Source of the DNA: Escherichia coli
GTDB lineage: Bacteria > Pseudomonadota > Gammaproteobacteria > Enterobacterales > Enterobacteriaceae
NCBI RefSeq assembly: GCF_003334315.1
Contig: NZ_QOWR01000017.1
Length of the DNA stretch: 64,000 bases
Strand: one strand, 5' to 3'
Below, one piece after another: positions 22,014 through 25,771 of the stretch. Every line of letters starts with the position of its first letter. Within the stretch, counting starts at the first letter, position 1. The notes beneath the pieces were generated by a model. That model made no database searches, was not told the origin of the DNA, and saw nothing but the letters and a program-made list of their open reading frames with translations. Position numbers and translations under genes: made by a program.

Positions 22014-25000
22014 TTACTCAACAGGTTGCGGACGCGCAGGAGCGGCAGAGGCATGATGTGTTGCCGTATGACCACCTGCGGCACCTTTACCTTCGAAGGC
22101 AAAAGTAGGGCGCTGCCAGTCACTGTGACGCGGTGCCTCCGGAACATATTCCGGTGCTGGAGCGCGCGTCATTGGCGCGGTAGCGTGGTTATGCTCAACG
22201 GTGACCTCAGGTTCGACCGCAGCTACCGTTTCAACTTCTGCTGCGACTTCAGCGACTACTGGCGCGGCAGGTTGAGCAACAACTTCAGGTTCAGCAACTA
22301 CAACCTCAGCAGTTTCGACAACTTCTTCAATATCTGCCGTCTCTTCCTGCGGTTCAACCACCGGTTCTGCTTGTTCTGCAACTTCCTGGGCTACGGCAAC
22401 ATCAGACTCGGTAATCACCTGCGGCTGTTCAGTTACCGCGGCAGCGATCACTTCAGGATGCGTCGTTTCAACCACTTCCGGTTGCGGTTCGGCAACCTGA
22501 ACGGGGGCTTCTACGACACCGGCCACTTCTTCAACAACTGGCGCGCTAACAACCGGTTCGATAGCGGCGGCGACAGGGACCTCAGTCACCATCGGCTGCA
22601 CATGTACTTCTTCCTGTTCGCGCTGCTCTTCAACCTGTACATCTTGCGGACGTACAATTGGATAGCGGATCCAGACTTTGCCAGAGGCCAGTTCCGGAGA
22701 CGCGCACGCTACGGTCAACGGCATTGGCGACTGGGTTGGATAACGCTCGTCACGATAGCGACGACGACGCTGACCACTTACGCGCAGGTGACGAGGCGAG
22801 CGGCGAGAACGACGCGGCATGCCACCGTTGTCACGGTTATCAGCATTGTTCTCTTCTTGCTGTTCTGGTGCAGTTTGCGCTACGACTGGCAGCGGGACTT
22901 TCACCAGTTCTGTGCGTGGAGCTGGCGCTTCCTGAACAATTGGTTCGGCAGCGATAGTTTCTTCAACCACCGGTGCGACTACCGCTTCTTCGGCTACGCT
23001 TTGCTCGTAACGCACTTTCTGATTGAGCTGACGCTGTTTACGACGCGGCTGAACCGGACGTACACGTTCTTCCTGTTCGGTTTCCTGAACAGATTGCTCT
23101 TCAACATTCAGCGCCTTCGCTTCTTGTTGCGCCTGACGTTTATCATCATTACGGCGGCGGCTACGTTCACGACGCGGCGCTTGCTGCTCGTCGGCGGTAC
23201 GCGCTTTTTCCGTTACCTCAGCCTGCTGACGGCTCTCACGCGTCTCGGCAGTCTGCTGCTGTGCCTGGCGACGATTACGACGGTTTTCTTCGCGATTATC
23301 GCTGCCTTCAGTACGTTCACTACGGGTGTCGCGGCGCTCATTACGGTCACGGCGGTTGTTCTGACGAGGCTTGCGACGATCCTGTTGACGTTCCGGTTTC
23401 GCTTCTGCTTTCGGTGCTGGTTGCTCGGTCGGTTTGGTTTCTTCACCACCGCTGAACAGCGCTTTCAGTGCGCCGAAGAAGCGGCTCAACAGCCCAGGTT
23501 GTGCAGGAGCTGCTGGTGTTGCCGGTGCAGCTTTCGGTGCTGGAGCTACAACAGGCGCGGCAGGTTCAGCTGGCGTTGGCGCAGGCGGCACATCCGGCAT
23601 GGCAAAGGTTGCCAGCGCAGGTTGTTCCGGACGCTTACGTTCAGCGAACTCTTCTTCAGACGGCAGCGCCATCGCTTCTTCATGCAGCTTCGGCAGCATG
23701 TAGCTTAAGGTTGGGGTTTCTTCCCCTTTACGCACGCGCAGCACGTGGTAGTGCGGGGTTTCCATCTGATCGTTTGGCACAATTACACAGCGCACACCGT
23801 CCTGACGAGTTTCAATGGCATTTACCGCAGAACGTTTTTCATTCAGCAGGTAAGAAGCGATTGGCACAGGAACAATGGCGTGAACTTCCTGGGTGTTCTC
23901 TTTCAGCGCTTCTTCTTCGATCAGACGCAGAATAGAGAGCGACAGCGATTCGTTGTCACGCACGGTGCCAGTACCAGAACAACGCGGACAAACGTGATGA
24001 CTGGATTCACCCAGTGATGGGCTCAGGCGCTGACGGGACATTTCCAGCAGGCCAAAGCGAGAAATATGGCTGATTTGAATACGCGCACGGTCCTGACGCA
24101 CCGCTTCACGCAGACGGTTTTCTACCGCACGCTGGTGGCGTACTGGCGTCATGTCGATGAAGTCGATAACAATCAGGCCGCCGAGGTCACGCAGGCGCAG
24201 CTGACGAGCAATCTCATCGGCAGCTTCGAGGTTAGTGTTAAACGCGGTTTCTTCGATATCGCCGCCGCGGGTCGCGCGTGCGGAGTTGATGTCGATGGCC
24301 GTTAACGCTTCGGTGCTGTCGATAACAATGGAACCACCAGACGGCAGACGAACTTCACGCTGGAAGGCGGACTCGATCTGTGACTCGATCTGGTAGTGGC
24401 TGAACAGCGGGATCTCGCCGGTGTACAGTTTGATTTTGCTGCTGAAATCCGGGCGACCTAATGCAGCGATATGCTGACGTGCCAGTTCGAGCACTTTCGG
24501 GTTATCGATAAGGATTTCGCCGATGTCCTGACGTAAGTAATCGCGGAATGCGCGAACGATTACGTTGCTCTCCTGATGAATCAGGAACGGGGCCGGGCGG
24601 CTTTCAGCGGCTTTTTTGATGGCTTCCCAGTGTTTCAGACGGAAGCTTAAATCCCATTGCAGCGCCTCAGCAGATTTGCCGACGCCAGCGGTGCGCACGA
24701 TAAGCCCCATGCCTTCCGGCAGTTCAAGGCTTGCCAGTGCTTCTTTTAATTCGGTACGGTCGTCGCCTTCGATACGGCGAGAAATGCCACCCGCGCGCGG
24801 GTTGTTCGGCATCAGAACCAGATAGCTACCCGCCAGACTGATAAAGGTGGTTAATGCCGCGCCTTTGTTGCCGCGCTCTTCTTTATCGATCTGAACAATG
24901 ACTTCCTGACCTTCACGCAACACATCTTTAATGTTGGGACGACCATGAGCACTGTAGTTAGCAGGGAAATATTCGCGGGCAATTTCTTTTAGTGGGAGGA

Positions 25001-25199
25001 AACCGTGACGTTCAGCGCCGTAATCAACAAAAGCAGCTTCCAGACTCGGTTCAATGCGGGTGATTTTACCTTTGTAGATGTTTGCCTTTTTCTGCTCGTG
25101 CCCTGGACTTTCGATATCCAGGTCATACAGACGCTGCCCATCTACAAGGGCAACGCGCAACTCTTCCTGCTGAGTTGCGTTGATTAACATTCTTTTCAT
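22014..25199 (-). CDS. rne: ribonuclease E
   Basis: 1061-aa ORF: N-terminal catalytic half, then Arg-rich and acidic/Pro-rich low-complexity scaffold half. Confidence 0.96.
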
Positions 25200-25560
25200 C
25201 GTAACTTACTCATTATTCTTACATTGACGACTAAGCTGCGGGCAAAGTAACGCCTTTCCGGGTGTGAACCGATGGCCTCGTGTCTAGTCGCGTCGCCAAC
25301 CTCACGGTTATCGTCAGCTCAAAGAGGCGCAGAGTGTCGGTTGCCCGTTTTTCATGCGGAAAAACAGCGCAATTATCAAAGAAACAGACTGGGTATTACT
25401 CTCCAGAAATATTTCCATCTACCGGTAAGGACTGCAACCCGCAGCCCGCTAACTGCCTGAAAGATCAATACGTCTTACGCCATTGCTGCGTGGATGATCG
25501 GTCGGGCAAAATGGGTTATTCCGTAAAATTTCTTGTTTTAACAAGGATGGACACGGAAAC
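25200..25560 (-). promoter_or_regulatory. rne 5' leader (autoregulatory UTR)
   Basis: Long untranslated region upstream of the rne start; established knowledge that the rne leader is long and RNase E-responsive; boundaries approximate. Confidence 0.5.
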
Positions 25561-25771
25561 GGCCTCATTATTCCACTGCAAGCCTTGTTATAGCAAGATG
25601 ACTTTTACCATTTATCACCCGCTTACTCACAGTTTTTTCACTTCTTGCTGGTGATTGGTTTAATAACCATCAATAAAGTGATCACGCAGTGAAGTAATAA
25701 GGTGCAAAAGTAAATATAAGCATAGAAAAATGAGTGGCGCGAATCCTGTTGGCTAATTAGAATCGCCAACC

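Follow-up and report, generated by a model that had tools for sequence, protein, structure and literature searches.

Introduction

The 5' leader of the rne mRNA is reportedly an autoregulatory element in E. coli, as described by Jain and Belasco in 1995, Diwa et al. in 2000 and Schuck et al. in 2009. In literature cited in PMC10989929 and PMC8361080, RNase E is described as binding the hp2 stem-loop of its own E. coli leader and speeding the decay of rne mRNA, an autoregulation that keeps RNase E at a set level. The leader is 361 nt long (PMC10989929), and that of E. coli is the founding member of the Rfam family rne5. On the opposite strand lies yceQ (b1085), whose coding sequence is still present in the K-12 RefSeq record under the product name "DUF2655 domain-containing protein YceQ".

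The phantom nature of yceQ is already in the literature, as are all the essentials of the account given here. Ribosome profiling gave no reads on yceQ in three conditions, which represent only a few laboratory conditions, and yceQ alleles are disrupted in some strains and tolerate transposon insertions (Price et al. 2016, PMC5053530). Goodall et al. (2018, PMC5821084) placed the rne promoter within yceQ and found many TraDIS insertions there, in a single orientation only, and by CRISPRi an effect was obtained only from guides oriented to block rne (Rousset et al. 2018, PMC6242692). A strain with a nonsense mutation in yceQ codon 8 is viable (PMC10249474); the transposon, CRISPRi and nonsense results together show that a YceQ protein can be dispensed with. 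At three yceQ serine codons, recoding that is synonymous for yceQ cannot enter the genome, and the Syn61 project redesigned the region because it is the 5' UTR of an essential gene (PMC7614783, PMC12799115). Deletion of "yceQ" would, by this literature, be lethal only through loss of the rne promoter and leader. Two further phantom ORFs, ypaB over the nrdA promoter and yaaY over a 5' UTR, likewise cover the regulatory region of an essential neighbor (PMC6242692, PMC12799115), and in all of these cases essentiality and recoding trouble are explained by the neighboring gene. Unlike them, yceQ is antisense to an unusually long structured leader.

Results and Discussion

We analyzed the rne-rluC region within a 64,000-nt stretch of E. 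coli DNA (RefSeq assembly GCF_003334315.1, contig NZ_QOWR01000017.1; hereafter the window), for which an earlier sequence-only reading had noted a plus-strand ORF antisense to the rne leader. We are highly confident that the rne-rluC spacer is a dense regulatory region of the essential rne gene and that the opposite-strand yceQ ORF is an accidental open frame. The features on which the analysis turns are as follows (window positions).

22014..25199, minus strand: rne coding sequence (RNase E, 1061 aa; ORF list and K-12 record)
25772..26731, plus strand: rluC coding sequence (319 aa; ORF list and K-12 record)
25200..25771: divergent rne-rluC spacer, 572 bp
25200..25560, minus strand: rne 5' UTR from promoter P1, 361 nt (the Rfam match starts at 25560, and the -10 hexamer ends 7 nt upstream)
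25224..25560, minus strand: full-length match to Rfam RF00040, rne5 (RNase E 5' UTR element), 260.1 bits
25519..25558, minus strand: 5' stem-loop, leader nt 3-42 (helices 1-4)
25453..25509, minus strand: second stem-loop, leader nt 52-108, with the invariant GCAGCAAUGGCGUAAGACGU at its top (invariant columns, helices 5-8)
25233..25447, minus strand: large multi-branched 3' domain, leader nt 114-328 (helices 9-16)
25567..25596, minus strand: rne promoter P1, with -35 TTGCTA (25596..25591), an 18-nt spacer and a TGn-extended -10 AATAAT (25572..25567)
25612..25632: putative double DnaA box TTATCACCC-gc-TTACTCACA, upstream of the P1 -35 and within the ORF
25280..25654, plus strand: 124-codon ORF with a GTG start (ORF list), judged to be a chance, non-coding frame
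25334..25654, plus strand: yceQ (b1085) coding sequence as in K-12 MG1655, GTG start, 106 aa (NC_000913 1144502..1144822, offset 1119168)
25322..25327, plus strand: Shine-Dalgarno-like AAGAGG, 6 nt before GTG 25334 (anti-SD duplex -5.8 kcal/mol)
25580..25582, plus strand: ORF codon AAG, TAA in Citrobacter and most other genera, in the non-critical spacer of P1
25758..25763, plus strand: conserved TAGAAT, the likely -10 of rluC, 8 nt before ATG 25772

Over 7001 compared positions, 13 differences separate the window from K-12 MG1655, and the rne-rluC region was matched in all 5426 complete E. coli genomes. A genome scan of species representatives with the RNase E N-terminus yielded 80 Enterobacterales loci, in 79 of which rne and rluC diverge across a spacer of roughly 546-720 bp. 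The sequence-only reading had put the spacer of the window at about 570 bp, close to its measured length, and had equated it with the rne 5' leader region; this is true of the 361 bp that make up the P1 leader and not of the rest of the 572 bp, which holds promoters and DNA sites. Beyond rluC, the small RNA SraB (RF00077) was detected beside yceF in E. albertii and Citrobacter loci (L003:154-321, L007:148-315, L012:20-187); because the K-12 annotation also has SraB next to yceF, synteny is conserved over the wider region.

The leader of the window is the founding member of rne5 itself and differs from it in nothing of note. The match to RF00040 covers model positions 1-333 of 333, scores 260.1 bits against a gathering score of 180 (E = 3.7e-82) and lies directly 5' of rne on the same strand (rne ATG at 25199, minus strand), in agreement with the earlier placement of the ORF antisense to the leader. 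The same arrangement was found in 19 of 20 phylogenetically spread Enterobacterales loci, with rne5 at or above the gathering score, and the stem-loops, including the invariant top of hp2, and the covariation across Enterobacterales are common to the family and to the window. The second stem-loop (25453..25509) is, in our reading, hp2, which Diwa 2000 and Schuck 2009 reportedly describe as the RNase E sensor. Read on the other strand, its complement encodes the conserved "QYVLRHCC" of the YceQ pseudo-protein. The helices of the 3' domain are 88-99% paired, except helices 11 and 12, and carry many compensatory changes. The invariant hp2 top (GCAGCAAUGGCGUAAGACGU) also contains, in the hp2 loop on the minus strand (25479..25487), a mini-ORF AUG-GCG-UAA, whose overlap with the RNase E binding site is probably a coincidence.

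To measure covariation, we aligned the 80 leaders (the window and 79 loci) by MAFFT independently of any structure model and projected the Rfam consensus structure (84 pairs) onto the alignment. Standard pairs occupied 90.1% of cells, as compared to 34-43% when the 3' partners were slid by 1-3 columns; both sides had changed in 41 of the 84 pairs, and double-change cells numbered 363, as against 68-127 in the slid controls. Not one of 500 shuffles reached the observed value for four of five measures, and 3 of 500 did so for the fifth, further pair types. Because the minimum free energy of the leader is not exceptional (z = -0.66), we dropped thermodynamic stability as uninformative, and the case for leader structure rests on covariation, not on thermodynamics. 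Among 40 Enterobacteriaceae-like species, nucleotide diversity was 0.146 in the leader and 0.361 at third codon positions of rne. Purifying selection in the spacer acts at the nucleotide level, on the covarying RNA structure, the P1 hexamers and the DnaA boxes, and none is seen at the protein level. The sequence-only reading had suggested weighing conservation of the leader structure against that of the ORF, and across the 80 Enterobacterales the leader covaries and the ORF shows no coding signature.

The same leaders yielded an unrelated observation. Eight loci (L005, L008, L010, L012, L021, L023, L024 and L050; e.g., L012:2156-2281), belonging to some Citrobacter, Pseudocitrobacter, Pluralibacter and Kluyvera, carry a 108-128-nt insertion at the same unpaired leader junction (after window 25418, leader nt ∼143), and their leaders still exceed the rne5 threshold. 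The inserted sequence is ERIC-like, matching the ERIC core at 82% over 40 nt, and recurs as a dispersed repeat in E. coli genomes, which have a median of 5 full-length intergenic copies each. In two Citrobacter the insert is 126 nt long, a multiple of three, and stretches the phantom ORF to 146 aa.

Upstream of the leader, P1 matches the sigma-70 hexamers at 9 of 12 positions, and its -10 ends 7 nt before 25560; the position of the hexamers therefore places the +1 at about 25560 and yields the published 361-nt leader. Both hexamers are invariant in the sampled Enterobacterales. The ORF covers leader nt 1-281, all of P1 and the double DnaA box, so that the claim of an overlap with the rne promoter was well founded: the sigma-70-like promoter at 25596..25567 (minus strand) lies inside the ORF. 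The double DnaA box occurs as an exact match once in the window, and its two boxes fit TTWTNCACA with 6 and 8 matches out of 9 positions. It coincides with a published DnaA ChIP-seq peak, whose K-12 position 1144772 corresponds to window 25604 (PMC11317965). The box pair is nearly invariant in Escherichia, Citrobacter, Enterobacter, Kosakonia, Phytobacter and Mangrovibacter, and is absent from the sampled loci of Serratia, Yersinia, Dickeya, Pantoea and Photorhabdus; as a pattern of sequence conservation, this suggests that DnaA may be tied to RNase E expression specifically in Enterobacteriaceae.

The ORF itself is as had been described in its coordinates (25280..25654, plus strand, 124 aa, present in the ORF list) and in its identification with the position at which databases place yceQ, since b1085 corresponds to window 25334..25654. 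The two share locus, strand, frame and stop and differ only in that the ORF of the first reading uses an upstream GTG at 25280 and is 18 codons longer. Two details were mistaken. The start had been given as ATG, and both the start at 25280 and the annotated start at 25334 are GTG; and the supposed lack of a convincing Shine-Dalgarno is borne out at 25280 (anti-SD duplex -3.3 kcal/mol, i.e., no Shine-Dalgarno) and not at 25334, which is preceded by AAGAGG (-5.8 kcal/mol). These errors leave the conclusion unchanged. We rejected Shine-Dalgarno strength as a coding discriminator, because the true neighbors rne (-2.2 kcal/mol) and rluC (+0.2 kcal/mol, no Shine-Dalgarno) are weaker than the phantom start at 25334. 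When the spacer was shuffled with its dinucleotides preserved, an ORF of at least 124 aa appeared in 1.4% of shuffles, both strands counted; the yceQ ORF is thus longer than in 98.6% of shuffles, a point against reading it as an artefact, and such a length is unusual for a single spacer and unremarkable genome-wide. In the 30 E. coli RefSeq records listed, PGAP called no CDS at the yceQ ORF, and only rne, rluC and IS1 were annotated under the match.

Tracking the frame across Enterobacterales showed that 25280..25654 is intact at full length only in E. coli and E. albertii, and that nearly all other genera have in-frame stops within it, indels that are not multiples of three, or both. Because codon 25580..25582 is TAA in most genera and AAG in Escherichia, the long Escherichia ORF arose from loss of a stop. 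Counted from GTG 25334, the TAA gives an 82-aa ORF, and the 82-aa "DUF2655" proteins of Salmonella and Citrobacter terminate in ...LFHC exactly at this codon. Protein database "homologues" amount to only 32 clusters of ragged length (68-156 aa) and partial coverage. ORFs of at least 100 aa were found on the antisense strand in 17 of 80 species and on the rne strand in 1 of 80; we rejected this excess as coding evidence because it reflects a single shared stop-free frame through an invariant core. The long ORFs of other genera all pass this core in one frame, and outside it frames switch between lineages; neither of the remaining two frames stays open through the core (7 and 69 codons). The core of the pseudo-protein corresponds to the hp2 top and UUAGCGGGCUGCGGGUUGCAG read on the complementary strand, as its conserved C-terminal "YSK...IYHP.THS" does to the P1 -35 hexamer and the DnaA boxes. 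What looks like a conserved "peptide" is the complementary reading of RNA and DNA elements that do not vary, and the pseudo-protein seems conserved across genera because the leader RNA is conserved.

Tests for a coding signature were uniformly negative. Diversity in the yceQ frame was 0.180, 0.142 and 0.179 at the three codon positions (Kruskal-Wallis p = 0.37), whereas rne codons 1-299, the positive control in the same species, gave 0.036, 0.009 and 0.361 (p = 1e-127). In a gap-free alignment with Citrobacter R56 the dN/dS of the ORF was 1.07, and its "dS" of 0.096 was eight to twenty times lower than that of rne (0.76) and rluC (1.87), which indicates that constraint is equal on all codon positions. 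The codon-usage log-odds of the ORF was -0.20, as compared to 0.335 ± 0.10 for 47 real genes of the window and -0.06 ± 0.20 for spurious ORFs inside genes, and its GC1 was 0.40 rather than 0.64-0.72. A Pfam-A search with the ORF gave no match even at E ≤ 10, an NCBIfam search gave none, and the PDB held no relative. The evidence indicates that YceQ/DUF2655 is not a protein family at all. Codon periodicity, dN/dS, codon usage, frame breaks and covariation thus all agree with the earlier judgment that the ORF is more likely an annotation artefact than a gene.

Nucleotide-level constraints (the rne5 RNA, the P1 hexamers and the DnaA boxes) freeze the spacer sequence, and one of the three antisense frames by chance meets no stop along the invariant core. 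The ancestral TAA was removed in Escherichia by two substitutions within the P1 spacer, leaving 124 open codons. We infer that the ORF owes its existence to this chance frame and that the "essentiality" of yceQ and its "conservation" across genera both stem from the opposite-strand rne leader and promoter, and YceQ protein is in all likelihood neither made nor needed. By position, the yceQ TCG and TCA codons fall in leader helices or junctions or beside the P1 -10; which three of the serine codons are the recoding-intolerant ones we infer from their spacing.

A slight residual uncertainty, which we put at a small fraction of the whole, concerns a condition-specific young gene or a functional antisense transcript. 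It is highly improbable that yceQ is a real young gene, confined to Escherichia or, in its 82-aa form, to an Escherichia-Citrobacter-Salmonella clade, and translated from GTG 25334 via AAGAGG in unsampled conditions. Such a gene would fit the annotation of yceQ in K-12 and the Shine-Dalgarno-like motif 6 nt upstream of the annotated start; however, that motif overlaps the complement (25324..25328) of a covarying leader helix arm that pairs with 25275..25279 (helix 15, in which one pair is UA 49 times and CG 30 times). No stop interrupts frame 25334-25580 in Escherichia and some Citrobacter, nor, judging by the 82-aa database protein, in Salmonella, but retention of the ORF at nucleotide identities of at least 90% is expected without selection. 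Set against the improbable length of the ORF (shuffle p = 0.014) are its dN/dS of about 1 with no codon periodicity, a codon usage below that of the average spurious ORF, the lack of any plus-strand sigma-70-like promoter site in 25100..25900, and the viability of the codon 8 nonsense allele (PMC10249474). Ribosome footprints, which the sequence-only reading had named as refuting evidence, are absent as well, with zero profiling reads (Price et al. 2016, PMC5053530). A related idea, to which we give almost no credence, is that loss of the TAA at 25580..25582 in Escherichia, together with AAGAGG before GTG 25334, produced a very young de novo gene with low or special-condition translation from an antisense transcript of the rne leader; were this true, its expression would be inversely coupled to rne transcription.

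It is also very unlikely, to our mind, that a non-coding plus-strand transcript, antisense to the rne leader, pairs with it and affects rne expression as a divergent "excludon", the ORF being irrelevant. ExcludonFinder reports 16 divergent excludons present in at least 50% of 58 MG1655 transcriptomes, and rne-yceQ is one of them (PMC12288877), but this call may merely reflect the overlap of the rne 5' UTR with an annotated CDS, and we set it aside as evidence of antisense transcription because it may be an annotation artefact. The failure to find a plus-strand sigma-70-like site in 25100..25900 weighs against such an RNA too, as does the lack of a fitness effect from CRISPRi guides on the yceQ coding strand (PMC6242692). 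Nor is the rluC mRNA a source: rluC is among the known leaderless genes (PMC8794815), so its transcript begins downstream of the ORF and does not cover it. We therefore retain the reading of yceQ as an accidental open frame over the rne promoter and leader.

This finding itself yields no new biology, and its practical value is one of annotation hygiene, as yceQ persists in the K-12 reference and in older essential-gene lists and its annotation has misled essentiality screens and genome-recoding designs. The locus clearly illustrates the way in which a conserved structured RNA can lend the ORF opposite it the look of a conserved protein family, and three simple tests (codon-position diversity, dN/dS and frame tracking) unmask such mimicry.

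Two observations concern the rluC-proximal part of the spacer. Blocks TTAAGCAYAGAAAAATGAGTGGCGC and TATTTAGAATCGCC (25716..25740 and 25755..25767) are conserved in most Enterobacterales, and the 13 nt between them vary freely. The latter block contains the likely -10 of the leaderless rluC, and the former could be an upstream promoter element of rluC or a distal rne promoter. IS1A interrupts the spacer in at least two E. coli genomes (L002, which is E. coli M217, and NZ_OW967975), flanked by a 9-bp target duplication (25713..25721). The site is upstream of both genes, ∼50 bp from the rluC ATG and ∼155 bp from the rne P1 start, and the element parts P1 from the distal spacer, where further rne promoters have been reported.
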